From assembly GCA_963705105.1 (NCBI GenBank), contig CAVPIW010000014.1:192001-256000 (forward strand): a stretch of 64,000 bases of DNA, read 5' to 3'. Both the position numbers and the translations under genes were made by a program. Below, piece after piece: positions 8,973-54,525 of this stretch. Numbering within the stretch: position 1 is the first letter of the stretch; every line of letters begins with the position of its first letter. The notes below the pieces were generated by a model that was given only the letters and a program-made list of their open reading frames with translations, did no database searches and was not told the origin of the DNA. This DNA is from an uncultured Nitrospiraceae bacterium (GTDB lineage Bacteria; Nitrospirota; Thermodesulfovibrionia; Thermodesulfovibrionales; Dissulfurispiraceae).

Positions 8973-9370
8973 TGCAGGGACATCTTCGGTTCCGTGACGA
9001 GCCCCAGTTTTTCGATCCCTGCCTCCTTGATCTCTCCCATCACCTCGGCGATGAGACCGTAGGGAACATCACGATCGGCTTTGAGGAAGACGTTCGGATT
9101 CTGCTTGCTCGCCGCGGACAGCCGTTTCACCAACTGCTGCGTCGAAACGGGATTGTCGTTCAGGAAGATAGCCCCCCCTTTCCTGATCACGACGGTGATC
9201 CGTTCTTCCGTGGGCATGTCCTTGCCTTTGGCCTTCGGCAGGTTGACGTCGACGCCCTGCTGAAGGAGAGGCGCCGTGACCATGAAGATGATGAGGAGCA
9301 CGAGCATGACGTCGACGAGAGGGGTGACGTTGATCTCGGACATGGCCGTTCTCTGTCTGGCGACTTTCAT
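8969..9370 (-). CDS. tolR: TolR
   Basis: MSEINVTPLVDVMLVLLIIFMVTAP, LKADRDVPYG. Confidence 0.95.
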   Translation of the reverse strand: MKVARQRTAMSEINVTPLVDVMLVLLIIFMVTAPLLQQGVDVNLPKAKGKDMPTEERITVVIRKGGAIFLNDNPVSTQQLVKRLSAASKQNPNVFLKADRDVPYGLIAEVMGEIKEAGIEKLGLVTEPKMSLQ

Positions 9371-9503
9371 GGCGTCTCCGCAGTGTGTGTGTGAGTGTCA
9401 GTGTCAGTGAAAGGCCTGACTGTCAAACCCCGGCAAGGATTCGGCAACCGCCGCGATGCCACCTTCGCCCCGCCTTTTCGGGCGGTATCTATAACAGTCA
9501 GTG
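9371..9503. repeat. Repeat-family insertion between tolQ and tolR (GTGTCA run plus CTTCGCCCCGCCTTT end)
   Basis: Shares the terminal motif and hexamer run with the other copies. Confidence 0.8.
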
Positions 9504-10130
9504 TCATTTCTCTTTCAGGATGTAATCGACGAGCTCCTCGGAAAAGTCGTCCATATCGATGATCATCCTGTTCGCTCTGCTGAGGAAATAGTTGTAGGCG
9601 ACGACGGCCGGGATGGCAGCGGCGAGGCCGACGGCCGTCGCGATGAGGGCCTCGGCGATGCCGGGGGCGACGACGGCGAGCGATGCCGATCCGGCGCTCC
9701 CGATGCCGCGGAATGAGTTCATGATGCCCCAGACCGTCCCGAAGAGGCCGATGAAGGGCGTCGTCGATCCTGTCGTGGCGAGGAAGTTGAGGTATTTTTC
9801 GAGCTTCGCCGACTCGAGGGCCGCATACCGTCTGAGCATGCGCTTGAGCTCGTCGCGGTCGATGTAGGTCTTTTCGGCATACACGGACCGGAAGAGGTTC
9901 GACAGGGGGCTGACGGCATACTTTTTCGACGCAGAAAAGAGATCCTTCGGGTCTCTCGTCGAGTTGTAGATCCGGAGGAAATGCTCGGTCTCCTTGTCGG
10001 ATCCCTGAAAGTGGCGCCATTTCTGGAAAATGATCGCCCAGGACACGATGGAGAAGAAAAGAAGGCATATCAGGACGGCCTTGACGACGTAGCCGGCCTG
10101 CAGAATGAGTTGTAACGCCGATTGTTCCAT
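9504..10130 (-). CDS. tolQ: TolQ
   Basis: ATG 10130 with AGGAGG; FLATTGSTTPFIGLFGTVWGIMNSF, VAPGIAEALIATA. Confidence 0.96.
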   Translation of the reverse strand: MEQSALQLILQAGYVVKAVLICLLFFSIVSWAIIFQKWRHFQGSDKETEHFLRIYNSTRDPKDLFSASKKYAVSPLSNLFRSVYAEKTYIDRDELKRMLRRYAALESAKLEKYLNFLATTGSTTPFIGLFGTVWGIMNSFRGIGSAGSASLAVVAPGIAEALIATAVGLAAAIPAVVAYNYFLSRANRMIIDMDDFSEELVDYILKEK

Positions 10131-10232
10131 AGACCTCCTAAATCTTCTCACTTTATCCAATATCTTTTTAAAATGTCAAATTGTCGCATCATTTCAGTTG
10201 CTTTTTTCCCCAATGCTGCGGTAATGTGCAGT

Positions 10233-11222
10233 ATGGGTTACACGGACATCGTCCACGGTTTCAGGGGCAAGAGAATCCTGATTATAGGCGATCTCATCCT
10301 CGACCGGTACATCTACGGAAAGGTGCGCCGGATCTCTCCGGAGGCGCCCGTGCCGGTCGTCGAGGTGACGGGGGAGTCCTTTCTCCTCGGCGGCGCCGCC
10401 AATGTGGCGAACAACATCGTGGCCCTCGGCGGCAGGGTCTCTCTTGCCGGTGTCGTTGGGAGGGACACGGCCGGGACTGTCTTCCGGGAACTGCTGCAGG
10501 AAAAGGGGATCGAGGTGTCAGGCATCATAGAAGACAAGCGCCATACGACGGTCAAGACAAGGATCCTCGCCCACAACCAGCAGGTCGTCCGGTTCGACCG
10601 GGAAGACACGAAGAGGGTCGAGGGAAAGAACCTCTCCCGGCTCCTCGATTACCTCCGCGAGGCAGTTCCCGCCCACGATGCCGTGATCGTCTCGGATTAC
10701 AAGAAAGGCGTCATTTCGTCGATGCTCATCAAGTCCCTCGTCCGGTTCTCCGCCGTCAACGGGACCTTCATCGCCGTCGATCCCAAGGTGGGCCATTTCC
10801 ATTTCTACAAAAACGTCTCCCTCATCACGCCGAATACCCTCGAGGCCTCCCAGGGCGCGGGTGTCGAGATCCGCGACGAGAAGAGCCTCCTGAAGGCCGG
10901 TCGGACCCTGCTGACCCGGCTTCACTGCCGGTCCATCCTCGTCACGAGAGGCGAGGACGGTATGAGCCTCTTCACTCGCGGAGATGCCTCACGGGGAACT
11001 GAGGTCATTCACATCCCGACGGCGGCGAAAAAGGTCTTCGATGTGACCGGTGCAGGCGACACCGTCATTGCCACCTTCACCCTTGCCCATGCTGCCGGGG
11101 CCTCACTTGAAGAGGCCGCCGTCATCGCCAACCACTCAGCCGGCATCGTCGTCGGCGAGGTGGGCACCGCCGTTTCGACGCCGGGGCAACTGCTGAAATC
11201 CCTGGTCAGGGCGGGTGAATAG
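10233..11222 (+). CDS. rfaE1: D-glycero-beta-D-manno-heptose-7-phosphate kinase (RfaE domain I, PfkB family)
   Basis: IGDLILDRY..RISPEAPVPVV, LGGAANVA, SDYKKG, DVTGAGDT. Confidence 0.93.
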   Translation: MGYTDIVHGFRGKRILIIGDLILDRYIYGKVRRISPEAPVPVVEVTGESFLLGGAANVANNIVALGGRVSLAGVVGRDTAGTVFRELLQEKGIEVSGIIEDKRHTTVKTRILAHNQQVVRFDREDTKRVEGKNLSRLLDYLREAVPAHDAVIVSDYKKGVISSMLIKSLVRFSAVNGTFIAVDPKVGHFHFYKNVSLITPNTLEASQGAGVEIRDEKSLLKAGRTLLTRLHCRSILVTRGEDGMSLFTRGDASRGTEVIHIPTAAKKVFDVTGAGDTVIATFTLAHAAGASLEEAAVIANHSAGIVVGEVGTAVSTPGQLLKSLVRAGE

Positions 11223-11227
11223 GGGGC

Positions 11228-24294: not shown

Positions 24295-24328
24295 TTGATC
24301 CTTGACGTTAGGCCGCACCCTTGCAATC

Positions 24329-25185: not shown

Positions 25186-25269
25186 CTTCAGGCTGACTAT
25201 GAGCTTCGGGTCGCCCGGACTATGATCGGTCCTGAAGTCGAGAAAAGGGTCCAGCGCCACGTGGCATAG
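25186..25269 (+). pseudogene. 3' remnant of a HigA-type antitoxin
   Basis: LQADYELRVARTMIGPEVEKRVQRHVA* resembles HigA C-termini (LQxxYDL). Confidence 0.55.
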
Positions 25270-39500: not shown

Positions 39501-42500
39501 CCACGGCCTTTGGAGGTCGCGGTAATTATGATAGCCGGAGGGCCAGCGCGGGAACGGTTTACATCAAATACAGCAACCAGCAGCAGGGGGATCTGTACAT
39601 CGATGACAATGTCGTGGATGGCAGCGGGACCCCCAACGGGACATCACCGGAGTCTACCCCGCTCACCTACATTACCTTCGGGACCACCGCCGGGGTGAAT
39701 ACCGATGCGTTTACTTTGACCACGGATGGACTGGCGTCGTTGATGCCTGGAGGTCTGGTGGGGATGAGAATCAATCCGGACATTACCCAGCAGGAGACCT
39801 TTGTCATCCAGTCCAACACGGCGAATGTGATCACGGTAATCAATCCGAACGAGCACGGGATTAACTTCTCAGCGGTGGCCGGCGCAGGGAAGACGTATGG
39901 CGGATGGTACCGGTTTGACAATGTCTTCTTCCGCCGGGGAGGCAACTTGGTGGTGGGAGACATTATCGAGGCGGGAACGATGAGGATTGAAGAATATGGG
40001 GTATTGACTCACTTCGAGACGACGCCCAGCTTCGTCTCCCAGCTTGACCTGACTGTAGGGGATCTTGTCATTGATACCACCGGCCGGATCGATGTCACGG
40101 GTCGCGGGTATATTGGTGGCAAGGGAGATTGGGAGAGAGGCCGGACAGTGGGCAATGTCTATGGGTCCGGCTCTGGGACCGGTGGCAGCTACGGCGGTCT
40201 GGGAGGCCGCTACAATGATGGTTCGGCCGGGCAGCCCAATGACCTGTATGGCAGTCTTACGGACCCTGTGGACCTGGGCAGCGGCGGCGGCGCCTGGGGT
40301 GGTACGGATGGCGGTGACGGAGGCGGCCGGATCTTCATCACGGCGACACACATCACGCTTAATGGTCGCATCATGGCCAACGGCGGGGAGAGTGAGGGAA
40401 GCGCTGCGGGAGATGGCTCCGGTGGCACGGTCAGTATCGTGACCGGCAGCCTCGCCGGAGGAGGGATCATCCAGGCCAACGGCGGTGGTAATGGCAACGG
40501 CACCGGCGGCGGCGGCGGGAGAATCGCTATCTACCATAATGGCTCCCTGACAGTGCCTGCGGCCAATATCACGGCCATCGGGGATGCGGGGCATTATGGC
40601 GTCGGAGGAAATGGAACGGTCTATTTCAGAGGACCCGGGCAGCAATATGGCGATCTCATCGTAGATGGCCTCGGTAATGCCACTCCAACGGATACGACGA
40701 CCATACCCGGAGACTATACCTTTAATGACATTGTCCTTCGAAACTCCGCAAGGGTCGTTGCGGATGACGGCATCACCGTAACGGGCAGATTGCTGATCAC
40801 CGGCAATTCGATTCTCACGCACAGTGGCCCAAATGAGACCGGATTGGTGATCAACGCCTCGGTGGTTCAAGTGGACGCAGGCAGCGCAATTGACGTGACG
40901 GGTCGCGGCTACGCGGGAGGCGCTGGGGATTGGGAAAGCGGCCGGACATTGGGTAATGCATACGGGTCCGGACCCGGAACCGGTGGCAGCTACGGCGGTC
41001 TGGGAGGCCGATACAGTGATGGATCCGCGGGGCAGGCCAATCTGGTTTACGGCAACGTGAAGGACCCTATGTTCCTGGGCAGCGGTGGAGGATCCTGGGG
41101 TGGTTACGACGGGGGCAGTGGCGGCGGACGGATCACGATCCATGCAACTGAGGAAGTGATCGTTCACGGCGCCATCCGGTCAAACGGAGGAGAGAGCGCC
41201 GGCAGCGCAGCCGGAGACGGGTCCGGAGGATCGATCCGGATCGAAACATCCCGTCTTGCCGGGACCGGATCCATCAGCGCCAATGGCGGCGGGTCCGGCA
41301 ACGGTGTCGGCGGTGGTGGCGGACGGGTGGCCATCTATTGCGATTATGTGGATCCGACGGATGACCTCGGCGACCTTCGCGGCACCACGGCCTTTGGAGG
41401 TCGCGGTAATTATGATAGCCGGAGGGCCAGCGCGGGAACGGTTTACATCAAATACAGCAACCAGCAGCAGGGGGATCTGTACATTGATGACAATGTCGTG
41501 GATGGCAGCGGGACCCCCAACGGGACATCACCGGAGTCTACCCCGCTCACCTACATTACCTTCGGGACCACCGCCGGGGTGAATACCGATGCGTTTACTT
41601 TGACCACGGATGGACTGGCGTCGTTGATGCCTGGAGGTCTGGTGGGGATGAGAATCAATCCGGACATTACCCAGCAGGAGACCTTTGTCATCCAGTCCAA
41701 CACGGCGAATGCGATCACGGTAATCAATCCGAACGAGCACGGGATTAACTTCTCAGCGGTGGCCGGCGCAGGGAAGACGTATGGCGGATGGTACCGGTTT
41801 GACAATGTCTTCTTCCGCCGGGGAGGCAACTTGGTGGTGGGAGACATTATCGAGGCGGGAACGATGAGGATTGAAGAATATGGGGTATTGACTCACTTCG
41901 AGACGACGCCCAGCTTCGTCTCCCAGCTTGACCTGACTGTAGGGGATCTTGTCATTGATACCACCGGCCGGATCGATGTCACGGGTCGCGGGTATATTGG
42001 TGGCAAGGGAGATTGGGAGAGAGGCCGGACAGTGGGCAATGTCTATGGGTCCGGCTCTGGGACCGGTGGCAGCTACGGCGGTCTGGGAGGCCGCTACAAT
42101 GATGGTTCGGCCGGGCAGCCCAATGACCTGTATGGCAGTCTTACGGACCCTGTGGACCTGGGCAGCGGCGGCGGCGCCTGGGGTGGTACGGATGGCGGTG
42201 ACGGAGGCGGCCGGATCTTCATCACGGCGACACACATCACGCTTAATGGTCGCATCATGGCCAACGGCGGGGAGAGTGAGGGAAGCGCTGCGGGAGATGG
42301 CTCCGGTGGCACGGTCAGTATCGTGACCGGCAGCCTCGCCGGAGGAGGGATCATCCAGGCCAACGGCGGTGGTAATGGCAACGGCACCGGCGGCGGAGGC
42401 GGTAGAATCGCAATCGATTACAATACTTCCAGTTTCAGCGGTGCGATTACTGCCAATGGAGGGGACGGGTCCTACGGTGATGGTGGACCCGGCACGGTCA

Positions 42501-42511
42501 ACCAGCAATAG
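33518..42511 (+). CDS. Giant exported protein (Ig-like/Big domains plus five Gly-rich GGSYGG modules), about 2997 aa
   Basis: GGAGG before ATG 33518, signal peptide ending ARA, FSSSNPAVASV Big_2 motifs, repeated IDVTGRGY..GGSYGGLGG..LGSGGG..GGGRI. Confidence 0.87.
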   Translation: MRRGIRGRYSKGVLCALSFFLAVFVLLAGNPARADFTVTVTGPGGSASQTILGDVGGSFDVNIPLNKNAVNTIKVTATDAIGNSASEELKVTQVALDAIVVSKITAQRLSVQEVEQLVNDGIINLADPANYNVSAFDIVLTIADQPVPVRVPVAVPKIAEEKSGWEVYKLPPAGDGGGGDRPKPPPPEIIVFESTIPGPPGEPPISIPGVLVIEGKIKSLKEFFSVRLLLMNTSGIFTLTDITAMIEFPEGGLSTVSPKDGIISFGEILPGEGNQPGQKEKECIIRGDEIGMRDVKVNFGGFVRGPGIPEDKPIPFNGSAMTEVEVKGPPTFKVEVTHPDFVTQGVPYELKVDITNTADIPAMYASLSIALGADGVLVKCSVDGNGNPVCTQIQGEDIRNLGHILPDQKVSQVFTVMPLKSGAISSCMGASDQNISLQVYVGNIGCVVGQFPPDRVSPDGSPAVSVLPTPNANGIHPDSPVTAFFSELMNEASITTGPGGTFNVFDSAGNEVWGQLRLIRLPADPTANQKTVAIWQPTGGTLVGNKKYTVILTTNIMDLEGKRLPSKWESTFTTTGTGLDDMDPPTVSLSIEPPINPGYVLPGQIVKVDAYTADQGSGVARVEARIKDLDEPNAQYQLIDQKTVFAGDKPPFIFPIDSGKLILNHTYQFRATVYDGAGNPREATIAFKIAPTAAAPTVTLPEDPAQPVLHGISVDVTPLNVTGGVREVRFYLDDAPNPFRVVSIAPYQTSLGTLGLTLGTHTVRAVALDPLGQSGEDTLSFTLAENLNMPVVNFGSAVNGAKYALGEQILVKPVISDPVGLASVTYYLDGFPGNPGGNNGEVLYSGFAPILFSTTGRSLGSHTIYVKATNNLGVSNNLSDPESSLQFVITEYKEGPPPAAPTVNIVSYPENGTVTLQGNSVANARISVTNATKGLSINVNAATSGSFTAQIPADAGDTISLVAYDLTTSIYPSAATTVTVQAAPVLTGISGSPQSMSFNARNEYQDITVTGNYNQGPSSNVTSRATFSSSNPAVASVNSSGRVVALSYGTATITATVGGFQAQVSVTVTIVSLTSITVEPSPVNLVTIGQTRQLTVTGHYSNGTTQVLNSGNTFTAGNVGIATVNSSGLISAVGNGNTQITVFHSGVAPVAVPVMVDITQDTAPTVQILSPAPGSSVERGQNIQVTVRAQDTVGGVTRLTLTVTGETSHAELKQISPASPDTTQSFTFAVSSAAAIGGSITLSATAEDTGGKTSPVSSVTLNVVDLNAPVVSITLPANQTPFNYGDTVNVNISATDAVGVTQIRYETTGALTLSGSMAITPASPSAIASFSFVIPFGVTTPNVRILAYARDGYGREGAAIPVDIIITNADITPPATVVTAVADPGLNARTTITYQVTSGLADLDHVELYFRRNGIGTFNRYTDADGGNPQGTFSPEIGNAGSILFDSTKMGGDGTYDFYTVGVDKAGNREPAPVSADQTAVFNAGTVWTTMNSPTTIGEGDTAFDNKNLRITGATVTVNGPHSFKNVELLNGAVLTHSDTTASQEFSLNLSAWTLSIDSTSRIDVAGRGYIGGNGDWESGRTVGNVYGSGSGTGGSYGGLGGRYNDGSAGQPNSVYGSLTDPVDLGSGGGAWGGTDGGDGGGRILINAVNVTVDGSIRANGGESAGSAAGDGSGGGIRISTKTLSGAGNITANGGGSGNGTGGGGGRIAITFFDMETMNAGGITAMGGLGQYGSGANGTVFLKQEQTAGGELVITGQGPATPWTNLTIPTGYTFDSITLRDNARVITNDPITVTGALWVTGNSILTHSGPNEAGLVINASVVQVDAGSAIDVTGRGYAGGAGDWESGRTLGNAYGSGPGTGGSYGGLGGRYSDGSAGQANLVYGNVKDPVFLGSGGGSWGGYDGGSGGGRITIHATEEVIVHGAIRSNGGESAGSAAGDGSGGSIRIETSRLAGTGSISANGGGSGNGVGGGGGRVAIYCDYVDPTDDLGDLRGTTAFGGRGNYDSRRASAGTVYIKYSNQQQGDLYIDDNVVDGSGTPNGTSPESTPLTYITFGTTAGVNTDAFTLTTDGLASLMPGGLVGMRINPDITQQETFVIQSNTANVITVINPNEHGINFSAVAGAGKTYGGWYRFDNVFFRRGGNLVVGDIIEAGTMRIEEYGVLTHFETTPSFVSQLDLTVGDLVIDTTGRIDVTGRGYIGGKGDWERGRTVGNVYGSGSGTGGSYGGLGGRYNDGSAGQPNDLYGSLTDPVDLGSGGGAWGGTDGGDGGGRIFITATHITLNGRIMANGGESEGSAAGDGSGGTVSIVTGSLAGGGIIQANGGGNGNGTGGGGGRIAIYHNGSLTVPAANITAIGDAGHYGVGGNGTVYFRGPGQQYGDLIVDGLGNATPTDTTTIPGDYTFNDIVLRNSARVVADDGITVTGRLLITGNSILTHSGPNETGLVINASVVQVDAGSAIDVTGRGYAGGAGDWESGRTLGNAYGSGPGTGGSYGGLGGRYSDGSAGQANLVYGNVKDPMFLGSGGGSWGGYDGGSGGGRITIHATEEVIVHGAIRSNGGESAGSAAGDGSGGSIRIETSRLAGTGSISANGGGSGNGVGGGGGRVAIYCDYVDPTDDLGDLRGTTAFGGRGNYDSRRASAGTVYIKYSNQQQGDLYIDDNVVDGSGTPNGTSPESTPLTYITFGTTAGVNTDAFTLTTDGLASLMPGGLVGMRINPDITQQETFVIQSNTANAITVINPNEHGINFSAVAGAGKTYGGWYRFDNVFFRRGGNLVVGDIIEAGTMRIEEYGVLTHFETTPSFVSQLDLTVGDLVIDTTGRIDVTGRGYIGGKGDWERGRTVGNVYGSGSGTGGSYGGLGGRYNDGSAGQPNDLYGSLTDPVDLGSGGGAWGGTDGGDGGGRIFITATHITLNGRIMANGGESEGSAAGDGSGGTVSIVTGSLAGGGIIQANGGGNGNGTGGGGGRIAIDYNTSSFSGAITANGGDGSYGDGGPGTVNQQ
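38915..42396 (+). repeat. Near-identical 1.6-kb intragenic duplication (38915-40512 vs 40799-42396, period 1884 bp)
   Basis: Only about six substitutions seen by eye. Confidence 0.95.
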
Positions 42512-42656
42512 AAGTGGTCGATGGACGAGCCTCCGATTCAGACAGGATGTGCAGAGCGGCTGCTCCTCGACCCGACAGAAGCATAAACGGCGATGAAGCT
42601 CAGCTCTGAATAGGTTCTGGATGAGCATGCTCAGTCCCTGAAGAATTCACAATCAT

Positions 42657-42697
42657 CATGCCGGTCCCTGCGCGAATCCCCGCCGGGGGCCGGCATG
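42657..42697. terminator. GC-rich hairpin after the giant-protein operon
   Basis: CATGCCGGTCCC...GGGGCCGGCATG; no immediate U-tract. Confidence 0.4.
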
Positions 42698-42761
42698 CTC
42701 ACACCATTTTCCCGTCATTCCTGTTTCTCTTTTCATTCCATTCATGTATAATTTCAACTGT

Positions 42762-43637
42762 ATGATCAGAAATGACCTTACATTCCTCCGTCCTCAGGTC
42801 CTCACCTTCATCAACATCTTCCTTGCCGTCATCATCGTTCTCGCTGCCCTCGTGCTCGCCCGGGACGTGCTGACCTTCGCCTCCAGAAAGCCGCTGACGC
42901 CCCTGAAGGCGGCGGGATCAGCGGACAAGGGACAAGCCGCGGACACCCTCCAGTCCTACGAGCCCATCGTCAGGAACAACTTCTTCGGCGCGCCGGGAGG
43001 CCCGCTGAAGCCCCTGACTGCTTCGAAAGACGGCGGACAGGCACAGTCCGACAAGTCCCTTGTCGGGACGGTTGCGCCGGTCCAGGGTTACAAGGGATAT
43101 GCGATTTTCATGGACAAGTCAGGGACGCAGGAAGTCATCAAGGTGGGGGACAAAGTCCCCGGTATGGGCCGCCTCGAAAAAGTGGACAGGGACAAGGCCA
43201 CTGTGCGGGGTGACGCCGGGACCGTCGTCGTCCCCCTTGTCGACATTGTGAAGATAACGGATGTGCACACGGCCCAGAGCGGAGGCGGAGCATCCGACTT
43301 TGCCAGGCCCGTGGGAACGGGCAGCTTCATCGTCGACCAGAAGAAGATCCTCCAGGCCCTCGAAAACCCTAACCAGCTCATGACGGACGCCCGGCTGACG
43401 CCGAACGTCGTCAACGACCGCCAGGAGGGCTTCATGCTCCGCGAAGTCAGGGAAGGCGGCATTTACAGGAATCTCGGGCTGCAGAACGGTGATGTTCTTT
43501 TGCGCATTAATGATTATAATATCTCGAACCCGGAAAACGCCCTGCAGGCCTTCTCGGCGCTCCGGGGCATGGACAGGGTCCAGCTGGATATCATTCGCGG
43601 CGGCAACAAGATGAACCTGAACTACCAGATTCGGTGA
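42762..43637 (+). CDS. gspC: Type II secretion protein C (TM, HR, PDZ)
   Basis: IVRNNFFG, LVGTV, YRNLGLQNGDVLLRIN PDZ; first gene of the gsp cluster. Confidence 0.88.
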   Translation: MIRNDLTFLRPQVLTFINIFLAVIIVLAALVLARDVLTFASRKPLTPLKAAGSADKGQAADTLQSYEPIVRNNFFGAPGGPLKPLTASKDGGQAQSDKSLVGTVAPVQGYKGYAIFMDKSGTQEVIKVGDKVPGMGRLEKVDRDKATVRGDAGTVVVPLVDIVKITDVHTAQSGGGASDFARPVGTGSFIVDQKKILQALENPNQLMTDARLTPNVVNDRQEGFMLREVREGGIYRNLGLQNGDVLLRINDYNISNPENALQAFSALRGMDRVQLDIIRGGNKMNLNYQIR

Positions 43638-43653
43638 CACAGAGGATGAAATC

Positions 43654-45915
43654 TTGAAAAGCGGGACTGAGATAATCATTGTCGCTGTCAGCAAGACTTT
43701 GAGACACTTTGCCCTGCCGTTGCCATGCAACCTGAATATGATGAACCATGCGATCATCTTTCTTTTCGTCATACCTCTTCTCCTTTCACTCCTGCTCACG
43801 CCGGTCCTGCCGGTTCATAACGCCTGTGCGGCTCCCCGGGAAAGTCACCCGGCCGATCAGAAGGTGACCGTCAACTTCGTCGATGTGGACCTGACGGTGG
43901 TGACGAAATTCATCAGCGAGGTGACGAAGAAGAACTTCATTTACGATGAACGCGTCAAGGGGAAGATAACGATCATCGCGCCATCGAAGCTCAGCATCGA
44001 AGACGCGTTCAGCCTCTTCACATCCGTTCTCGACCTCAAGGGGTTCACCGTCGTGCCCTCCGGCGTCAACGCCTATAAGATCATCCCCTCTTCCGAGGCG
44101 AAACAGCGCGGCGTTACGATCGTGAGCGATCGGAAACCGGTGAACGAAAGTTACATGGCCCGGCTCATTCCGCTGAAAAACGTCTCCTCCGATGACGCCC
44201 TGAAATTCATCCAGCCCATCGTGTCGAAGGACGGGTATGCATCGTCCTTCGGTCCCGGCAATTTGCTCCTCGTCATCGACTCGGGCCTGAACATGGAGAA
44301 GGTCCTCTCCATCATCGAGAGCATCGACCAGCCGTCCATGAGGGAGGGCCCGGAGATCGTGTATCTCAAACATTCCAGCGCCGATGCCGTGGCGAAGATC
44401 ATCAACGAAGGGTCCGTCCGCAGATCGCGGGCGGTTCCGCAGCCCGCTACCGGTGAGGACGCCAAGGCCGTGGCGGACCAGCGGCTGAACGCCGTCGTGA
44501 TCTTCGGGGACAAGGGCGCGAGGGAATCCATGAAATCCCTGATCGCACTGCTCGATGTTCCTTCTCCGGAAATGCAGGGGAGGATCAACGTCTACTTCCT
44601 CGAGCATGCCGACGCCTCGGAGCTCGTCAAGGTGATCGAGGGGATCATACGGGGAGGCCAGCAGCGCCAGCAGGCCGCTGCAGCGCCCGGAGGGGCGCCG
44701 GTCACGCCCTTCGAGGCGGCCGGGGGCATCACGGTGACGGCCGACAAGGCCACCAACTCCCTGGTCATCGTCGCCTCTCCCTCCGACTATCAGAACCTGC
44801 TGCAGGTGATCAGGCAGCTCGACAGGCAGCGAAGGCAGGTCTTCGTCGAGGCGATGATCGTCGAGGCGTCGATAGACAAGCTGAGAGAGCTGGGCATCAA
44901 ATGGAGGGCCACGGTCCAAAAGGACGGTGAGCCCATCGTGATCGGAGGATTCGGTACCATTGATTCGGCAGCGGTCCAGACCATCCTCACCGGCCTCCAG
45001 GGCGCCACCCTCGGGGGGCTTGGTAACTTCCTCGATGTGCCCTTCACGACGGTCCGGCCCGACGGTTCCGTCGTCAAGTCGACACTGACCATCCCGGGTT
45101 TCGCCGCTCTCTTCAACCTGAACGAGTTCAAGGACTCGATCAATGTCCTGTCGACACCGCAGATCCTCACGTCGGACAACAAGGAGGCGGAGATCGTCGT
45201 CGGTGAAAACGTGCCGTTCATCAGCAAGCGGGAGTCGGATCCGACGAGGACGGCGTCGGTCTTCAGCACGATCGAGCGGAAGGACGTGGGCATCATCCTG
45301 AAGCTCACCCCCCAGATCACCGAGGGGGACCATGTGAAACTGAACATCTATCAGGAGATCTCGGCGCTGAAAAACGAATCGGAAGTCGTCGCCATCACCG
45401 TCGGGCCGAGCATCACGAAGCGGGCGACGACGACGTCCGTCGTGGTAAAGGACCGGCAGACCGTCATCATCGGCGGCCTCATGCAGGAGCGGATCGAGGA
45501 CAACCTCACGAAGGTGCCTTTCTTCGGGGACCTCCCCCTGCTGGGATACCTCTTCCGGAGCAGGAGCACGTCGAGGGAAAAAACGAACCTCCTCGTTTTT
45601 CTCACACCCCATGTCGTGAAGCAGGCGGAGACTCTCGATGCGATAACCGAGACGAAACGGAAGGAGTTCGCCATTGCCGAAGGCAGATATACCCCGGGGG
45701 AGGTCCTCGTGAAATTCAAGGAGGGAGTCACGAGGGAGCGGGCCGTCGAAATTATCAGTGAAAGAGGCTCCGTCATCATAGGCTTCATCCAGGCTGCCGG
45801 CATTTATCACCTGAAGCTCAGGGAGAAACTGCCCGTCGAGGAAGGGGTGAAGGAATTCGGCCTCTACCCTGAAGTGAAATACGCTGAGCCGAACTACACG
45901 ATCAAGATGCAGTGA
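43654..45915 (+). CDS. gspD: Type II secretion secretin GspD with an extra C-terminal domain (alternative start ATG 43738)
   Basis: VTVNFVDVDL..KNFIYDERVKGKITII, RRQVFVEAMIVE, STPQILTSDNKEA, KVPFFGDLPLLGYLF, TNLLVFLTPHV. Confidence 0.95.
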   Translation: MKSGTEIIIVAVSKTLRHFALPLPCNLNMMNHAIIFLFVIPLLLSLLLTPVLPVHNACAAPRESHPADQKVTVNFVDVDLTVVTKFISEVTKKNFIYDERVKGKITIIAPSKLSIEDAFSLFTSVLDLKGFTVVPSGVNAYKIIPSSEAKQRGVTIVSDRKPVNESYMARLIPLKNVSSDDALKFIQPIVSKDGYASSFGPGNLLLVIDSGLNMEKVLSIIESIDQPSMREGPEIVYLKHSSADAVAKIINEGSVRRSRAVPQPATGEDAKAVADQRLNAVVIFGDKGARESMKSLIALLDVPSPEMQGRINVYFLEHADASELVKVIEGIIRGGQQRQQAAAAPGGAPVTPFEAAGGITVTADKATNSLVIVASPSDYQNLLQVIRQLDRQRRQVFVEAMIVEASIDKLRELGIKWRATVQKDGEPIVIGGFGTIDSAAVQTILTGLQGATLGGLGNFLDVPFTTVRPDGSVVKSTLTIPGFAALFNLNEFKDSINVLSTPQILTSDNKEAEIVVGENVPFISKRESDPTRTASVFSTIERKDVGIILKLTPQITEGDHVKLNIYQEISALKNESEVVAITVGPSITKRATTTSVVVKDRQTVIIGGLMQERIEDNLTKVPFFGDLPLLGYLFRSRSTSREKTNLLVFLTPHVVKQAETLDAITETKRKEFAIAEGRYTPGEVLVKFKEGVTRERAVEIISERGSVIIGFIQAAGIYHLKLREKLPVEEGVKEFGLYPEVKYAEPNYTIKMQ

Positions 45916-45944
45916 CAATGACCTGATCGTTGCACAAGCCCCCC

Positions 45945-46128
45945 GGAAAAGGCGGGGCGAAGATGCCGACAAGTCTTGCTGCTAAGACACCTTATCAATC
46001 GTCAGACCACCGTTTAAGGGGAATGTTCAACTGCGTAAAATTCAATCGATGAGAACCGGCACTGCAATGATCAATGTCGCATTCAGCAAGACGGCGCGGC
46101 GCTTTGCCCAGCCTTTCCATGCAACCAC
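45945..46128. repeat. Degenerate repeat-family copy between gspD and the CPBP gene
   Basis: GGAAAAGGCGGGGCGAAGATGCC ... GGCGCTTTGCCCAGCCTTTCC ends. Confidence 0.8.
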
Positions 46129-46149
46129 GGCAATTCTATATGTCGCCCG

Positions 46150-46733
46150 ATGAAGACGACCCTCCCGGCACAGCGCAGACACATCCCTTTCAAATGGCTT
46201 CTCCTTTCTTACTGCGGCGTCATCATCGCAGCTATCCTCGTCCATGTCGCTGAAGTCCCCTTTGCTCCCGCCCTCGTCGCCCTGAGCCTCGCCGTCCCGC
46301 CGCTCCTTCTCCAGAGGGGGATCAATCTCTTCCTGTCGCCGAAAGACATGCTGGCGGGTCTCCTCGTTTCCCTCGGCGTTCTCATTCCCTATGCAGCGTG
46401 GATGTTTGCCGCGGGACGCGGTTTCACCATGCCTTCAGCGCTGACCGTCCTTCATCAGACCGTCTTCGTCGCCTTTCCCGAAGAGACCTTCTTCCGGGGC
46501 TTTTTGCAGGAACAGTTTGGGAACACCTTTGCCGGGATCTTTATCGTGAGCGCCCTTTTCGCCCTGGCCCATCTCCCCCGGGCCGCCCTGACAGGGGATT
46601 GGTCGGCGCTGCTGACTTTCTTCCCCTCCCTTGTCATGGGAGGGCTGTACTGGAAGACGGGCAACGTCCTGCCGGGGATCGTCTTTCATGTGCTCTCCAA
46701 TATCGCCCACAACGGCTTTGCGGGGCAGCCGGG

Positions 46734-46737
<4 letters not shown>
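46150..46737 (+). CDS. CPBP-family glutamic-type intramembrane protease (myxosortase-like)
   Basis: PEETFFRG, SALFALAHL, FFPSLVMG, IVFHVLSN; coupled to gspE by ATGA. Confidence 0.85.
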
Positions 46738-48252
<1,515 letters not shown>

Positions 48253-48272
<20 letters not shown>

Positions 48273-49428
48273 GGGCTACAGGGCCGACGGGACGGAGGCT
48301 GCGGGGACGATCGAGGCGTCGGGCCAGTCCGAGGCCCTCGACCGGGTGAAGGCCGAAGGCATCTTCCCGAGCAGTGTCACCGAGCCCCGGGCCGCGACGC
48401 AGAGACGTTTCTTTCAAAGGGTCGATGAGACCTTTCTTCCCGCACTGACGCGCCAGCTCTCGATTCTCCTCTCCGCCGGCGTCCCCCTCATGGAGGCCCT
48501 CGCCTCGCTCTCCCGTGAATACGAGGGCTTCTATCAGCAGCTGCTCATCTCCGTCAAAGAGCGCGTGGCAGGGGGAGCGGGCCTTCACCGCGCCCTCGAA
48601 GACTTCGGCGATTTCTTTCCCGATTTCTATATCAGCATGATTCAGGCGGGTGAGATGAGCGGCAGCCTCGACAGGGTCCTCACGAAGCTCTCCGATTTTC
48701 TCGAACGGCAGCAGGACATACGGTCGAAGGTGCGGTCGGCCATGATCTACCCGCTCCTCATGATGGGCGTTAGCATCGTCGTGCTCTCCTTCCTCTTCAC
48801 CTTCGTCATACCGAAGATCGTCAAAATATTCAAGGACACCCAGAGTACACTGCCCCCGGTGACGCAGGTGCTTATCTTCGTCAGCAACGTGTTCACGAAC
48901 TATTGGTGGCTCCTGATCATCGTCGTCGCGCTGATCGCGGCCTTGGTGAAGAGGTTTGTCAGAACGCAGAGACCTCTCGTCGACAGGCTGCTCCTCAGCA
49001 TGCCCGGCGGCGTCATGAAAAGCCTCTGTTACGGACGCTTCGCTCGGACGATGGCCTTCCTCCTCGAAGGCGGTCTGCCCGTTCTGAAGGCCCTCAGCCT
49101 CTCCGCCAAATCGACGGGCAACACCGATATCGAGGCATCCGTCCGCCGCGCCGCAGAGAGGGTCACGGAGGGACAGCGGCTGTCGGCGGCACTCGACGGT
49201 TTTCCGCCCGTCTTCCTGCAGCTCGTCGCCACCGGGGAAAAGAGCGGCAGGCTGCCGGAGACGCTGAACAAGGCGGCGGACTCCTATGAAGATGAGTTCA
49301 GCCGCTCCATGGGCAGGGTCGTGGCGCTCTTCGAGCCCCTCATGATCCTCGTCATGGGCCTCGTCGTCGGCTTCATCGTCCTCGCCGTCCTGCTTCCCAT
49401 GTTCCAGCTCAACCAGTTGATCAAGTAG
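48253..49428 (+). CDS. gspF: Type II secretion inner-membrane protein F
   Basis: TRQLSILLSAGVPL, AGEMSGSLD, SAMIYP, GEKSGRL, FEPLMI. Confidence 0.95.
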
Positions 49429-49559
49429 GACAGGAGACATCCGCTACTCGTCAAGCCAGTCCGTTGCCGGCACTGCAAGAAAGTCGTATGGATCATTCCT
49501 TCATAGAAGGATGGATACTTAAGCATCGATGCGGGTACTGGAGAAACGATATGGCATCA

Positions 49560-49832
49560 TCTGCCGTATTGCATTGAAAGCGATCAACTGACTGTGGAGC
49601 CTGGGCATGAAGGCAGCTAATCGGGTAAGGGACGTTAGTTGACCGTCCCTCCCGGAAACACCCACCGTGCGAGATGGAGCCCAGGCCGTGTGGCGCAAAG
49701 AAACTGAAGGAAACACCGTACTACAGGATCCGCAGCGGAGATTTCAGAATTGTTTACAGCATCGATGACAAAGCAGAACTTGTCAAAATCCTCTCCATCG
49801 GTGACCGCAAAGACGTTTACAGATTGCTCTGA
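49560..49832 (+). pseudogene. Degraded RelE/ParE-family toxin
   Basis: 49674-49832 reads EPRPCGAKKLKETPYYRIRSGDFRIVYSIDDKAELVKILSIGDRKDVYRLL*; the 5' part is disrupted. Confidence 0.75.
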
Positions 49833-50117
49833 CCTTTCTCGCAAGCAAACCACAACATCCCGCCGTCGATGCATGATATCCGAAGAAGAAAATCTGTCGT
49901 CACTTCTTGCATCCGCTTTTAATTTCTATATAACAGAAAATATCTGCCTTGTCTTGACATTTTTTCTCTTTTTTTTGATCTTTCTTGCTTTTCTGTCGGT
50001 ATTTATGAGACTGGTGATGATTGTAGGCGATAGACACGCAGTCACCCCCCCACTGCCAACCTCGATTATTGTTTGCAAGGGTTTACTGTCTCCTCTTTAT
50101 TCAGGTACAATACGGAC

Positions 50118-50582
50118 ATGTCAAACCCTGTAAAAAGCCAATCACGGACAATCGGCGGCTCCCGGGGCTTCACCCTCCTGGAGATCATCGTCGTCGTCTT
50201 CATCCTCAGTCTCCTCGCGGCGATCGTCGCACCCAGAATCATCGGCAGGACCGATGACGCGCGCATCGCCGAGGCGAAGGTGCAGATGAAGAACTTCGAG
50301 ACGGCCCTCAAGCTTTTCAAGATGGACAGCGGTTTCTATCCCGACACGCAGCAGGGACTGGAAGCCCTCACGGAGAAACCGACAACGGGCCGCATTCCGC
50401 AGAGCTACCGCGAGGGAGGATACCTGGAGCAGAAAAAGATCCCTCCCGATCCCTGGAACAATCCCTATGTGTACGTCTCCCCGGGCCTGAACGGCGATTT
50501 CGACATCCTGAGCTACGGGGCCGACGGGAAGGAAGGCGGAGAGGGGATCAATGCCGACATCAAGAACTGGGAGATCCGCTGA
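50118..50582 (+). CDS. gspG: Major pseudopilin GspG
   Basis: RGFTLLEIIVV, FKMDSGFYP..QGLEAL, DPWNNPYVY, SYGADGKEGGEG..ADI. Confidence 0.96.
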   Translation: MSNPVKSQSRTIGGSRGFTLLEIIVVVFILSLLAAIVAPRIIGRTDDARIAEAKVQMKNFETALKLFKMDSGFYPDTQQGLEALTEKPTTGRIPQSYREGGYLEQKKIPPDPWNNPYVYVSPGLNGDFDILSYGADGKEGGEGINADIKNWEIR

Positions 50583-51009
50583 GGGTTTTACCCTCCTTGA
50601 GCTCATCGTCGCGGTTTCCCTCCTTTCCCTGTTTCTCGCACTTGCACTCCCCTCGCTGAGTTCCGTCGGCGAGAGGCGGCTCAACGCCGAGGCGAAAAAG
50701 GTCGCCTCCATTGTCAGGTATCTCAACGATTCCTCCCTCACGGCAAAGGAGGAACACACCCTTTCCGTGGACTTCGCGGGCAGGACGTTGGCCTACAAAG
50801 GGCCGGAAGGGGAGAAATCAGAGACCTTTGCCTATCTTGCGGGGATCGACATCCAGTCAAGGGGAATGGTCACCGATGGTCAGATCATCCTTTTCTTCAC
50901 CCCCCTCGGTTCACGTGAAGGCTTCACGGTCCTGCTCAAGGATGAGAAATCGTCCCTCTCGGTGGTATTCAATCCCCTGAGCGGACGGGTCAAGATCAAA
51001 CCCTCATGA
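50551..51009 (+). CDS. gspH: Minor pseudopilin GspH
   Basis: EGFTLLELIVAV prepilin motif; position after gspG. Confidence 0.85.
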   Translation: MPTSRTGRSAEGFTLLELIVAVSLLSLFLALALPSLSSVGERRLNAEAKKVASIVRYLNDSSLTAKEEHTLSVDFAGRTLAYKGPEGEKSETFAYLAGIDIQSRGMVTDGQIILFFTPLGSREGFTVLLKDEKSSLSVVFNPLSGRVKIKPS

Positions 51010-51056
51010 GACATCATCTGTGTTTCCGGCATAATCTGAGTGTTGCAGAGATCTTT

Positions 51057-51344
51057 GGGAAAGGCGGGGCGAAGATGCCACCAAGAACGGTCGACTGTCG
51101 GAACAAGCCTACGAACACCGGGGCGGGGAGGCTGATGTGGTGAAAAGTCTTTCCGCTAAGATACCTTGTTCGTCCCCGGACCACCCCTTGCCGTGTCTGT
51201 CGATACCCGATGCCCGTCAGGCAACAGGCGCTGAACACCTTGAGATGCCTCATCATCGCATTGGAAAGGCTTTGAACCATATCCGCCTCCCCGGCGGCAA
51301 CGTCGCAATCAACAAGGCTTTGAGGCGCTTTGCCCCGCCTTTCC
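51057..51344. repeat. Dispersed repeat, type B copy
   Basis: Matches 58137-58310 directly, and 56445-56625 and 55961-56050 in reverse; family terminal IRs present. Confidence 0.9.
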
Positions 51345-51712
51345 ACGCGCCGGATAGATCATCATCACGGCGCCGGGGCAGCGGGGGGTTCACCCTCCTG
51401 GAAGTGATGATCAGCCTCGCCATCACGGGCGGCCTGCTCGTCACCCTCATCTATACGCTCAATTATCATCTCGGCGTCGCCGAGAGACACGCCATCGTGA
51501 CGACAGCGACGAACCTCGCCAGGGAAAAACTCGTAGAGATGGAAAAGACGCCGGCAACGCAGAAAGGCGAGTTCCCCGAGCCCTACGCGTCTTTCTCCTA
51601 CGAGACCGCCGTCAAGGCTTCGTCGTTCCCGGGGATGTCGGAGATCTCCGTCACCGTGACAAGCGGCAGGGAGGAGATGACCCTGCGGGAACTCATTCGC
51701 TCGTCGCGATGA
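51140..51712 (+). CDS. gspI: Minor pseudopilin GspI with repeat-derived extended leader
   Basis: GGFTLLEVMISLAI at about 51385; the only in-frame starts upstream of it lie inside the repeat (GTG 51137/51140, ATG 51245). Confidence 0.8.
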   Translation: MKSLSAKIPCSSPDHPLPCLSIPDARQATGAEHLEMPHHRIGKALNHIRLPGGNVAINKALRRFAPPFHAPDRSSSRRRGSGGFTLLEVMISLAITGGLLVTLIYTLNYHLGVAERHAIVTTATNLAREKLVEMEKTPATQKGEFPEPYASFSYETAVKASSFPGMSEISVTVTSGREEMTLRELIRSSR

Positions 51713-52347
51713 GGAAGGAAACGGCAGTGCGAGACCGCGGGTTCACCCTCCTGGAGGTCCTTCTCTCCATCGCCCTTGTCGCCGTCGTCATCACCGTCCT
51801 GTACAGCACCTTTTTCCTCTCCCGGCGGGCTGTCGACGCCGTCGACGATTCCCTCCTAAGGCTTCAAGAGTGCCGGTCCGCCCTCGACCTGATGAGGAGG
51901 GAGATGGAATCGGCCTACCTCAGAGACGAAAAGCACACCCTCTTCAAGATCGAAGACAGGGACTTCTTCGGCAGGCAGACATCGCAGGTGACCTTCACGT
52001 CATTCACGCCGCAGGCCACGGGACTCGCAAAGATCACCTACCGGATCGACGAGGAGGAGGGGCAGTTGATGCTCACGAAGAAGATCGTCATGCCCTTTGC
52101 CCGGACCGAGGAGCCCCAGGCTGTCCCCCTGATCGAGGATGTGGAGTCCTTCACCGTAGAAGTCCGCTTCAATGACCGCTGGGTCAGGACATGGGATACG
52201 GCGGTGACAACAAAAGCTCCCGAGGAGATCAGGATATCCCTCGGCGTGCCCCTCAAACGCCGGGAGGGCCTGTCGGGTGACGCCCGTCAGGCAACGGGAT
52301 ACCGCCTGGTCGAGACGGTGCAGCCGAGACGGGGGAGGGTCCCGTGA
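51709..52347 (+). CDS. gspJ: Minor pseudopilin GspJ
   Basis: RGFTLLEVLLSI, LIEDVESF, WVRTWD..P; operon position. Confidence 0.87.
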   Translation: MRKETAVRDRGFTLLEVLLSIALVAVVITVLYSTFFLSRRAVDAVDDSLLRLQECRSALDLMRREMESAYLRDEKHTLFKIEDRDFFGRQTSQVTFTSFTPQATGLAKITYRIDEEEGQLMLTKKIVMPFARTEEPQAVPLIEDVESFTVEVRFNDRWVRTWDTAVTTKAPEEIRISLGVPLKRREGLSGDARQATGYRLVETVQPRRGRVP

Positions 52348-53219
52348 GGTCTATCGTACGCTCCGAGCAGGGCATGGCCCTCATTCTCACAATCATGATC
52401 CTTGCCGTGATCACGGCGATGGTGATCGAGTTCGCCTACGGGGTCTTCACGGCCACATCGGCTCTTTACAACTGGAGGGACGGCCAGCGGCTCTCGGCCG
52501 TTGCGCTCTCCGGGGTCCGTCTCGCGGTAAAGACGCTCAACGACATTCCCGAGAGAGAGCTCTACCGGTTTACGGGGAACCTCGAGATCCCTGTCGAAAG
52601 TGTGTTCGAGGGATTTTCGGGCACGCTCATGATGACCGTGACGGACGAGAACGGGAAGTTCAACCTCAATGCGTTGTCCCGGTCCGGCCGGGACAGGAGA
52701 CCGTACGAAGCGCTGCAGTCGCTGTTGCGGTCGATCGGTGTCGACCTCGCCGTCGCCGACAGGATCGCCGACTGGGTCGACAGCGACAGCGAACCCCGTC
52801 TCCGCGACTCCGAGGAGGGCGCGAAGAACGGGCCCCTCGACAGCCCGGACGAACTCCTGTTCATCAAAGGCATCGACCGTGAGACCTACGACCGTCTCAT
52901 GCCCCATGTAACGATTTACGGGATGGAGGGGCGGGAAGACTCGCTCAAGATCAATATCAATAGCGCTTCCATCCCTGTTATAATGTCTGTCAATACGATA
53001 GACAGGAGCGAAGCCGAGAAGGTGAGGGACCTCAGGCCCTTCAAAGATGTAAGCGCCGCCCGGGCCTCAAGCAGCGCTCTCGGGACGGACATCGCCGTTG
53101 TACCGACGAACCTGCGCATCACCGCCGTCGCCGAAGAAAACAGGATCAGGCGGATCATCGAGTGCGTCCTGAGGAGAGACGGCGCCCAGTCGACGGTCCT
53201 GTACTGGCGGGAGATGTAG
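52344..53219 (+). CDS. gspK: Minor pseudopilin GspK
   Basis: QGMALILT, DENGKFNLN, IADWVDSD, KNGPLDSPDELLFIKGI, ININSAS. Confidence 0.92.
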   Translation: MRSIVRSEQGMALILTIMILAVITAMVIEFAYGVFTATSALYNWRDGQRLSAVALSGVRLAVKTLNDIPERELYRFTGNLEIPVESVFEGFSGTLMMTVTDENGKFNLNALSRSGRDRRPYEALQSLLRSIGVDLAVADRIADWVDSDSEPRLRDSEEGAKNGPLDSPDELLFIKGIDRETYDRLMPHVTIYGMEGREDSLKININSASIPVIMSVNTIDRSEAEKVRDLRPFKDVSAARASSSALGTDIAVVPTNLRITAVAEENRIRRIIECVLRRDGAQSTVLYWREM

Positions 53220-53257
53220 GGGACTTCATGGACCTTATCGATGCATATGCCATCAGG

Positions 53258-53428
53258 GAAGGCGGGGTGTATGCGCCGAAAACCTTGATGCGGCGACACA
53301 TTAACCGTTACAGAAGACGACGTTTCAAACCAATGGTCGGCCACACAAAGAGTGGAATCCTGAAAGACGAACCTGACGAAGCGTATCATCGCCTTCAGCA
53401 AGGCTTTGAGGCGCTTCACCCCGCCTTC
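53258..53428. repeat. Dispersed repeat, type A copy (reverse orientation)
   Basis: Reverse complement aligns with 56150-56325 and 3500-3603. Confidence 0.9.
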
Positions 53429-53454
53429 ACATGCAGCTGGAAGGTTATCACACG

Positions 53455-54525
53455 GTGAAAAAATCCGTCTTCGTCGACATCCGGCAGTGGGGCGGCCCCT
53501 CTGAGTCTCTCGTGCTCTACAGCTTCTCCGGCCGGGGCCGGGCCCTTCGCCATGAGACGACAGTTCCCCTCTCCGGAGGGACGATCCCGGCGGACCTTCA
53601 AAACAGCCATTTCACGGCCGGACTTCCCCTCAGCCTCCTGAACTTCCGGGTCCTCAGCGTCCCCTTTTCGGACAGGCAGAAGCTGAGGGACATATTGCCT
53701 TTTGAGCTCGACAGCCTCCTGCTCGGCGGCAGCGACCGGATTATTTTCGACTTCAGAATCCTCAGCGAGACCCAGGGCCAGGCCGAGGTGCTCGTCACAT
53801 ACGTGGAAAGGCAACTCCTCGGGACCGTCCTGCAGAGATTAACGCAGTCCGGTATCGACCCCGCCGTCGTCACGTCCCTTGAACTCAGAAAGGTGCTCCG
53901 GGCGGACCGGGCAGGGTTGGCCGAGTCCCTCCTGAGTCCGACCTCATTGGACGAAACGGAAAGGATCGACCTGGCAGGACAGGAGCTTTCCGATCCGACT
54001 GTCAATCTCCGGACAGGCCCCTTCGACTATACGAAAGACCGGGAGAAGGTGCGAAAGAAACTCCGGGTCGCGGCGATCCTCGCCCTTGTTGCCGCCGTCC
54101 TCATCAACGGCGACCTCGTTCTCAGGACGGTGACGGCCCGGCAGGAGACGTCGGCGCTCAACAGGGAGATGCGGAGATTCTATACGGAACTATTCCCCAA
54201 GGAGAAGAAGATCACCGACGAGGTGTACCAGTTGAAATCGCACCTCAAGGAGATCGGCGAGAGGGGAGACGCCCTGGCGGGAGCCCCGGCCCTTCCCTTC
54301 CTGATGAATATCTCGAAGTACAAGTCAGAGGGCGTTTCCGTCAGCGAGATCACCTTCGACCGCGATGCCGTAACGGTCAAGGGCGAGGCGGGCTCCATGG
54401 ACAACGTGGAGACATTCAAGAAAGGCCTTTCCGAAGTGCTCCGTGACGTCTCCGCTTCAGACATCAAGAGTTCCGTCGACAAGAAGACGCTCTTCACCGT
54501 CACAGGCAAATACAGGACGCGATGA
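53455..54525 (+). CDS. gspL: Type II secretion protein L
   Basis: FRVLSVPFSDRQKLRDILPFEL, VNLRTGPF, single TM; GTG 53455 with GGAAGG. Confidence 0.85.
   Translation: MKKSVFVDIRQWGGPSESLVLYSFSGRGRALRHETTVPLSGGTIPADLQNSHFTAGLPLSLLNFRVLSVPFSDRQKLRDILPFELDSLLLGGSDRIIFDFRILSETQGQAEVLVTYVERQLLGTVLQRLTQSGIDPAVVTSLELRKVLRADRAGLAESLLSPTSLDETERIDLAGQELSDPTVNLRTGPFDYTKDREKVRKKLRVAAILALVAAVLINGDLVLRTVTARQETSALNREMRRFYTELFPKEKKITDEVYQLKSHLKEIGERGDALAGAPALPFLMNISKYKSEGVSVSEITFDRDAVTVKGEAGSMDNVETFKKGLSEVLRDVSASDIKSSVDKKTLFTVTGKYRTR

Follow-up and report, generated by a model that had tools for sequence, protein, structure and literature searches.

Insertions of a miniature transposon leave a small class of relay-like reading frames at operon junctions of an uncultured Nitrospiraceae bacterium

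Relay reading frames across an inserted repeat are described for mycobacterial interspersed repetitive units (MIRUs), which are 40-100 bp long, occur in 40-50 copies and carry the coupled open reading frame (ORF) as a property of the element. In the account given in PMC12548453, MIRUs insert at start codons and the ORF is thereby coupled at -4, which probably leaves the gene unharmed; tetranucleotide repeats are noted in section 9 of PMC3184786, as is an overlap with both neighbouring genes. Here we analysed a 64-kb window (positions 192,001 to 256,000 of contig CAVPIW010000014.1, assembly GCA_963705105.1) of an uncultured Nitrospiraceae bacterium, in which a MITE (miniature inverted-repeat transposable element) lies at junctions of the tol and type II secretion system (T2SS, gsp) genes and is crossed by short frames. 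An earlier note on this DNA knew of no description of relays for such repeats, but the MIRU sections just cited give one; no account of this MITE family or of MITE relays was found in the literature, the Geobacter-paper supplements that list repeats being outside the scope. Counted over the whole genome, a small class of MIRU-like junctions in the MITE family was statistically real.

Unlike a MIRU, the MITE studied here measured ~212-420 nt, occupied ~750 loci, formed a long hairpin and inserted at TNNA sites anywhere and in either orientation, so that neither the size nor the copy number of MIRUs was matched. It relayed at ~4% of co-oriented junctions, and insertion at start codons was not its rule: a start was rebuilt from the target duplication at 5 of 79 resolvable junctions, and a strict path (no links other than -4/-1 overlaps, and no more than one mini-ORF between the genes) was present at 17 of 432. 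MIRUs are also said, in work by Supply et al. in 1997, to be oriented with the flanking genes; the MITE showed no such bias (38 vs 32), and the orientations of its module were balanced. By this comparison, the MITE appears to work like a MIRU at a few sites, and it falls outside that class on size, targeting and orientation. Chunjie, an A+T-rich MITE of Geobacter uraniireducens with 21-bp terminal inverted repeats and 9-bp duplications as described in PMC3184786 and PMC10969869, is similar in length (~200 bp), in having terminal inverted repeats and a target duplication, in its stable hairpin and many partial copies, and in inserting within operons; by description, the present element differs in its 4-bp duplication and in arms that are long and imperfect and end in CCTT/AAGG. 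In-frame insertion, within genes or at their 5' ends, is common for Rickettsia palindromic elements and Geobacter intragenic multicopy sequences. The MITE was likewise read in frame at gene 5' ends (sites (d) and (f) of Table 1 and 4 junctions elsewhere), but its fusions were confined to leaders, and across the genome a single locus was placed well within a called gene. Short upstream ORFs and bicistronic designs by which ribosomes are delivered, as outlined in PMC12548453, share with these relays a junk ORF that serves only to end at the next start, whereas the relay ORF here would consist of transposon DNA behind an ancestral start codon left orphaned.

In the 4.23-Mb genome, self-BLAST and profile searches found the repeat at 746 loci, covering 4.4% of the sequence under a generous mask. 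The element ended in CCTT…AAGG, the end logos stopping at CCTT, and had terminal inverted repeats; 60 copies with exact ends gave a modal length of 212 nt. A 4-bp target duplication was found in 39 of these 60 and a match of the inner 2 bases in 47, the T..A frame of the duplication being partly imposed by the definition of the ends. One modal insertion thus adds 212+4 = 216 nt, or 72 codons. In 122 copies chosen for a perfect TNNA duplication, with both strands pooled, the targets were TAAA (43), TTAA (26), TGAA (20), TAGA (10), TATA (9), TCAA (9), TACA (4) and TGCA (1). Copies were predicted to fold as long hairpins (z -2.9 for the gspK-gspL copy and -3.4 for the gspI-leader copy), the ORFs derived from the element had no Pfam match, with no transposase carried inside it, and orthologous sites at gspH-gspI and gspK-gspL were empty in contigs of related strains, as is expected of a MITE. 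The repeat is a MITE, a non-autonomous transposon that inserts at TNNA with a 4-bp duplication.

Co-oriented junctions bearing the repeat numbered 469, and 432 remained after gene scores <15, gaps >1200 nt and masks <25 nt were dropped. As a control within the genome, a frame was entered at the point four bases ahead of where the upstream stop ends, and its fate was compared between junctions with and without an ATG at that place. This frame led by relay or fusion to the next gene at 13 of 56 ATGA junctions, at 4 of 81 with GTGA or TTGA, and at 11 of 295 with no start (p 1e-5). Four of the 13 ATGA cases were in-frame fusions; relay alone was found at 9 of 56 vs 10 of 295 (p 9e-4; stratified permutation 0.003). 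When the window was left out, the contrast was 11/54 vs 10/292 for relay or fusion (p 5e-5) and 7/54 vs 9/292 for relay alone (p 0.006). Calibration against paralogous copies showed the ATGA frame free of stops in 10 of 37 cases with 4.6 expected, a 2.2-fold excess (p 0.0015), and the other 17 of the 18 cells gave p >0.1. The relays included some of 81-151 codons, almost pure MITE, lying between obvious partner genes (for example those of a MlaE permease with an ABC ATPase, of an ABC ATPase with an FtsX permease, and of two glycosyltransferases). At reconstructed empty sites that had a prior strict path, 8 of 9 inserts preserved the frame, compared with 33 of 70 at the others (p 0.03). The minority excess behind ATGA stops is supported as real by these counts, and we infer selection as its cause. 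The same control is inexpensive and can be applied again to any repeat family.

A pure by-product would combine an inherited start, a partly open register, a length of 72 codons and the -1 TGA that any RTG-A start brings with it, each downstream gene restarting at its own Shine-Dalgarno (SD) sequence. Register 1 was open in 41 of 104 short copies regardless of context (sense 23 and antisense 17 of 70), the far-end overlap at (g) exists without an upstream gene, and most ancestrally tight junctions manage without a relay, all of which would fit. However, the register was enriched only where an ATG preceded it: entered without a start, it was open in 11 cases with 10.2 expected. Frames of at least 100 codons, moreover, were found at 7 of 46 junctions behind ATGA vs 6 of 250 without a start; in long composite copies, however, no more than 2 of 120 frames were open. 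We give the by-product account an appreciable but small chance.

Several results weigh against selection as the cause, and some of them favor the by-product. The excess amounts to ~8-10 junctions among ~750 copies, and 43 of the 56 ATGA junctions had no path. Repeat-free gaps gave a like ATGA contrast (5/32 vs 11/231), so part of the excess may be real small genes or mis-called starts, and the gene calls themselves came from our own hexamer caller (3533 genes, ~76% coding density). An SD-like motif of their own stood before 9 of 13 relayed starts, compared with 157 of 415 other starts. Insertion was also simulated on the reconstructed empty sites, where ends were resolvable at 79 of the 432 junctions only. 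Here 4 of 9 strict paths were kept with 1.1-1.4 expected (p 0.016-0.04), and a third comparison gave 12/24 vs 6.7-8.0 (p 0.015-0.05); phase-matched simulation, on the other side, raised the expectation to as much as 2.3 (p 0.15), and a re-start window of -8..+10 nt gave 6/18 vs 3.3-4.4 (p 0.08-0.25). The support from simulation is borderline. At junctions that are tight in the relative G008, the -8..+10 nt count was 4 vs 3.5-7 in the nulls, and at expanded junctions of relatives one-hop relays numbered 9 against 8 in the null, counted with a very wide window.

The source of the upstream overlaps was read from contigs of related strains in public DNA runs, four of which were compared. The gspH-gspI insert was absent in 2 of the 4 runs (X3 and X4) and the gspK-gspL insert in 1 (X4). 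In the X3 and X4 contigs, 51017 was joined to 51372 with one letter between (51018-51371 skipped), and in this arrangement ATG 51006 was the in-frame gspI start, in frame with the GFTLLE motif. In X4 record 30, 53224-53455 was replaced by 4 letters and gspL began ~7 nt after the gspK stop, near the present ATG 53228, which is probably the ancestral gspL start. The breakpoints of these empty sites take in flanking bases, and the duplication is unreadable there. An X2 contig covering 53396-54405 showed that another strain has at least the right arm of the copy at (c), and X3 record 17 and X4 record 25 (~92% identical) ran gap-free across the gspC-gspD remnant (d). In relatives, the gspI start was in frame and within -23..+13 nt of the gspH stop in all 18 that have both genes (first T2SS set), the tolR start lay -20..+24 nt from the tolQ stop in 17 of 19, and tolB had an ATGA or GTGA (-4) start in 14 of 19; the tolR, tolB and gspL starts were near the upstream stop in most relatives, these junctions being short or overlapped when no insert is present. 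The empty sites in X3 and X4 together with the short junctions in relatives show that the overlaps on the upstream side at (b) and (c) are inherited start codons, orphaned by an insert placed on them or just after them, and not features of the element. For annotation, this means that the gspI and gspL starts have been displaced by the MITE.

Insertion at A-TGAA leaves ATGA on the left, and on the right the last G of the element joins TGAA to give GTGA; the 5 rebuilt starts mentioned above were of this kind (GTGAA/ATGAA). Two clean ATGAA insertions were seen elsewhere in the genome. At G000:C10:187627 (L174), which holds a 211-nt copy, a 72-codon ORF ends on the duplicated TGA; at G000:C6:506656 the gene apparently begins at the regenerated GTG, and the old ATG frame shuts after 8 codons.

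Expanded T2SS and Tol junctions of relatives contained in-frame fusions in 14 of 29 cases, compared with 2.5 under a phase-shift null, so it was by fusion that these junctions were rescued, and not detectably by relays. Repeats unrelated to the MITE stood in frame just after a coupled start in gspI/gspJ leaders (L031, L032, L033, L034) and in the tolB leader (L005, L011, L017). They were ~150-nt elements or 6-7-nt tandem arrays within prepilin leaders and signal peptides. Judged from these sequences, cleavable leaders seem to act as landing pads for repeats across the family. GspJ scans of genome and metagenome contigs added 7 further loci.

We consider it probable that a survivor filter operates at junctions with coupled translation, and that the 72-codon length of the module and its partly open frame assist it. 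The MITE would spread through intergenic DNA regardless of operons, most copies carrying no relay and being tolerated because the gene that follows restarts independently. A copy that lands on or just behind a coupled ATGA start would leave the old start on the upstream side, and the downstream gene would then have two options. The insert may extend the N-terminus in frame, in most cases into a cleavable leader, or a new start may be used on the far side, either the gene's own or one regenerated from the duplication (G+TGAA = GTG). With the second option, the orphaned ATG would open a junk frame across the hairpin, and junk frames that are free of stops and end on the new start are retained above chance; the likeliest reason would be melting of the hairpin by terminating ribosomes, which then re-initiate. 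Translation and coupling at the relays would follow by analogy with established termination-reinitiation biology. The best case for a relay is (b), where the insert put gspI and its coupled ATG in different frames. There, the closest start bearing an SD sequence (GGAGG, GTG 51137/51140) lies inside the predicted stem, and the 45-codon frame ends exactly on it. The price would be a prepilin leader of ~78 residues, compared with in-frame extensions of up to ~50 in relatives. If the minority relays are real, surviving insertions mark junctions that depend on coupling (gspH-I, gspK-L, tolQ-R and ABC ATPase-permease pairs), which would be useful in an uncultured-type organism without genetics.

The open frames could also be retained for another reason: true N-terminal extensions or small proteins may be encoded, or (b) may be a broken fusion that is read by frameshifting or is mis-assembled, with gspI made from ATG 51006. 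At (b), the gspI frame is stop-free through the element and overlaps the ATG frame over 51035-51140, long in-frame inserts are tolerated in the GspI/GspJ leaders of relatives, and fusions made up 4 of the 13 ATGA cases. Nevertheless, 8 relay peptides had no Pfam match (best E 0.23) and were mostly MITE sequence, and 51082-51350 aligned gap-free with a copy at 58094, indicating no indel in that part. An in-frame slippery heptamer was not seen by eye, a point that was not computed. We hold this alternative to be very improbable.

Across the genome, the wider claim of the earlier note, that copies last in operons mainly if ribosomes are kept moving by them, did not hold: 415 of 432 junctions had no strict path. 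Among 700 gene pairs adjacent in both this genome and G008, 306 were tight in G008, and repeats were as frequent at tight as at loose junctions (45/306 vs 59/394, p 1.0). Of the 45 repeat junctions tight in G008, 3 had a strict path and 42 did not; 26 were pathless even with the wide window and three hops. These 42 junctions hold hairpin inserts of 100-700 nt without a relay in a genome that has a rho gene, so the supposed penalty is weak or was solved by new starts. The 17 strict paths exceeded 7.8 in shuffled sequence, 6.9 after a swap with copies from convergent and divergent gaps, and 4-8 under phase shifts. The reverse-complement null was the least favourable, giving 12 against 17, and 8 against 13 in another test, and re-starts within -8..+10 nt occurred at 38 of 432 junctions vs 15-35 in the nulls. 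Poisson-binomial p values for the ATGA class were not used under the reverse-complement and phase nulls, which offer 1-2 variants per junction.

A more purposeful element can also be imagined, namely an evolved MIRU-like coupling cassette that targets stop/start overlaps and whose length, open frame and terminal G are adaptations for translational silence. The modal 216 nt keeps the phase, and in one orientation the best-open register of short copies was that of the ATG in A-TGAA-CCTT (the 41 of 104 above), compared with 14 and 21 for the other two; the figure for the opposite orientation was 13 of 99, and of the shuffled frames 7.8% were open. The duplication regenerates starts, and upstream stops accumulate at the element end. 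The copies share ancestry, however, so length and register count as one event each (luck of ~1/3 and 1/6-1/12), and the register was closed in all 7 copies of the a2 subtype. The stops inside the duplication numbered 15 with 11.4 expected from the target spectrum (p 0.046), making stop-codon targeting marginal; TAAA/TTTA and TTAA, not TGAA, were the commonest targets. The density of copies was much the same in co-oriented gaps (0.97 per kb of repeat-free gap) as in convergent (0.90) and divergent ones (0.75), and orientation was unbiased. The genome-wide counts largely refute a cassette, which we regard as highly unlikely.

Real copies kept more paths than shuffled random-phase DNA (1.1 vs 0.4 strict, 6.7 vs 3.9 wide), and the open register with the 72-codon footprint gives a higher chance of a surviving path. 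The suggestion in the earlier note that the element is built to keep ribosomes moving thus draws slight backing from the 216-nt insert, the open register and the regenerated GTG, against the lack of orientation bias and the rarity of rebuilt starts. We read the open register and the length as a helpful accident or as weak element-level selection, and not as a device. The MITE family may instead have been selected for translational silence at stop/start overlaps, with host selection keeping the relays, which consist of up to ~150 codons of nothing but transposon DNA. The basis would be that the duplication rebuilds a start, the 216-nt footprint keeps the phase and the overlapped ATG reads the best-open frame. 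We see a small chance of this; if true, the element would offer a natural way of assaying which junctions in operons require coupling.

All seven frames of the window that had been proposed as relays were present when recomputed (Table 1), and not all of them could serve as such. Sites (a), (b) and (c) are mini-ORFs running from near the upstream stop to the downstream start; the frame at (a) crosses a decayed MITE (a hairpin end and a hexamer array), and the duplication at (c) is no longer perfect (TGGA / TTAT). Sites (d) and (f) are in-frame N-terminal insertions, not relays. At (d), the frame after TTG 43654 was open and in frame with the gspD signal peptide, with its own GAGGA 7 nt upstream of the TTG; at (f), the insertion of 57 nt equals 19 codons, and the frame from ATG 8244, at a native ATGA, was open through the remnant within the n-region of the TolB signal peptide. 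The chain at (e) is broken, frames entered at the gspD stop closing at TGA 45924-26, 36 nt before ATG 45963. Site (g), where GTG 1064 opens a frame of 79 codons (ORF 1064-1303) that ends on the moaC GTGA, was rejected as a relay: the upstream gene is a 448-aa minus-strand ORF starting at 887, so the frame sits in a divergent gap with nothing upstream to couple to. It shows that a far-end overlap can arise without coupling.

Table 1. Coordinates of the MITE-associated frames and copies in the 64-kb window.
Feature	Position	Strand	Detail
(a) 46-codon frame	9367..9507	-	tolQ-stop ATGA (ATG 9507) to ATGA at tolR start, ATG 9370
(b) 45-codon frame	51006..51143	+	ATGA on gspH stop to TGA 51141-43 over GTG 51140, gspI frame
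Composite MITE in gspI leader	51035..51358	+	gspI frame stop-free from 51035 through whole element
(c) 76-codon frame	53228..53458	+	ATG 53228 after GGGGA to GTGA of gspL 53455
Full-length 212-nt MITE, CCTT…AAGG	53233..53444	+	at gspK-gspL; hairpin z -2.9
(d) right-half MITE remnant, gspC-gspD	43634..43738	+	GTG 43634, 7 codons, ends TTGA 43654
(e) decayed MITE, gspD to CPBP protease gene	45922..46153	+	ORFs 45963-46052 and 46049-46153 chain into ATG 46150
(f) 53-nt MITE remnant with internal deletion, flanked by two TGAA copies	8162..8222	-	tolB leader
(g) 275-nt MITE (1005-1279), perfect TTTA duplication	1001..1303	+	divergent gap before moaC

The window was an outlier, with a path at 4 of its 7 repeat-bearing co-oriented junctions vs 38 of 432 genome-wide (re-start within -8..+10 nt, at most one mini-ORF). 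The tolQ/R/A/B, gspC/D/H/J/K/L, moaC and CPBP protease genes were identified by NCBIfam matches, several below the curated cut-off, and gspI by a Pfam N_methyl match at residue 79 and gene order. A promoter and terminator scan of 42500-58500 gave consensus matches at 51006-51035 and 53360-53389, which were not counted as evidence; a promoter carried by the element is conceivable.

The MITE family is new and nearly private to the source genome. The exact end pattern was found in none of 300 other genomes of the phylum, a plasmid collection had no match to the element and Rfam had 0 matches in the window. A DNA search of 67 family genomes gave weak matches in 2 only, one of them a diverged 213-nt MITE (L162:1345-1557, in G049 of another genus) with CCTT…AAGG ends and a TTAA duplication, which offers a lead to the transposase. 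No autonomous partner was found among the listed paired ends 0.6-3.5 kb apart or among the ends of multi-copy insertion sequences (IS), and the genome has no PF13701 (IS1380-type) gene, so an IS1380-type partner was not found; 15 PF01609 matches were present, whose ends were not each inspected for CCTT…AAGG. An IS of ~1.37 kb with ~16 near-identical copies (e.g. C14:65987-67374, C16:54646-59680) has ends that differ from those of the MITE. Repetitive extragenic palindromes and their doublets (REP/REPIN) are marked by a Y1-type transposase gene (RAYT) flanked by the repeats and by the absence of a target duplication. Such a RAYT-dependent origin was rejected: the nearest repeat to each of the 4 Y1 genes was ~0.9-1.7 kb away or absent within 2.5 kb, and MITE copies have a target duplication.

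Nested or tandem MITE clusters at 55955-56711 and 57647-58360 of the window flank an Ap4A phosphorylase-family gene (56675-57643), and neither of the two junctions beside this gene had a relay path. The 448-aa gene divergent from moaC (window 1-887, minus strand; also L179:1042-2388) presumably encodes a protein resembling DNA photolyase, and the plus-strand ORF at 108-1043, which has no family match, is its antisense shadow. Two giant repetitive ORFs (1963 and 3005 aa, 27600-42511) and PEP-CTERM genes at 21779 and 26568 precede the T2SS operon, which contains a CPBP-family intramembrane protease gene (46150-46737); together they may form a locus that sorts and secretes large surface proteins. 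At 22737-25272, a DUF772/DDE transposase gene adjoins an IstB-like ATPase gene.

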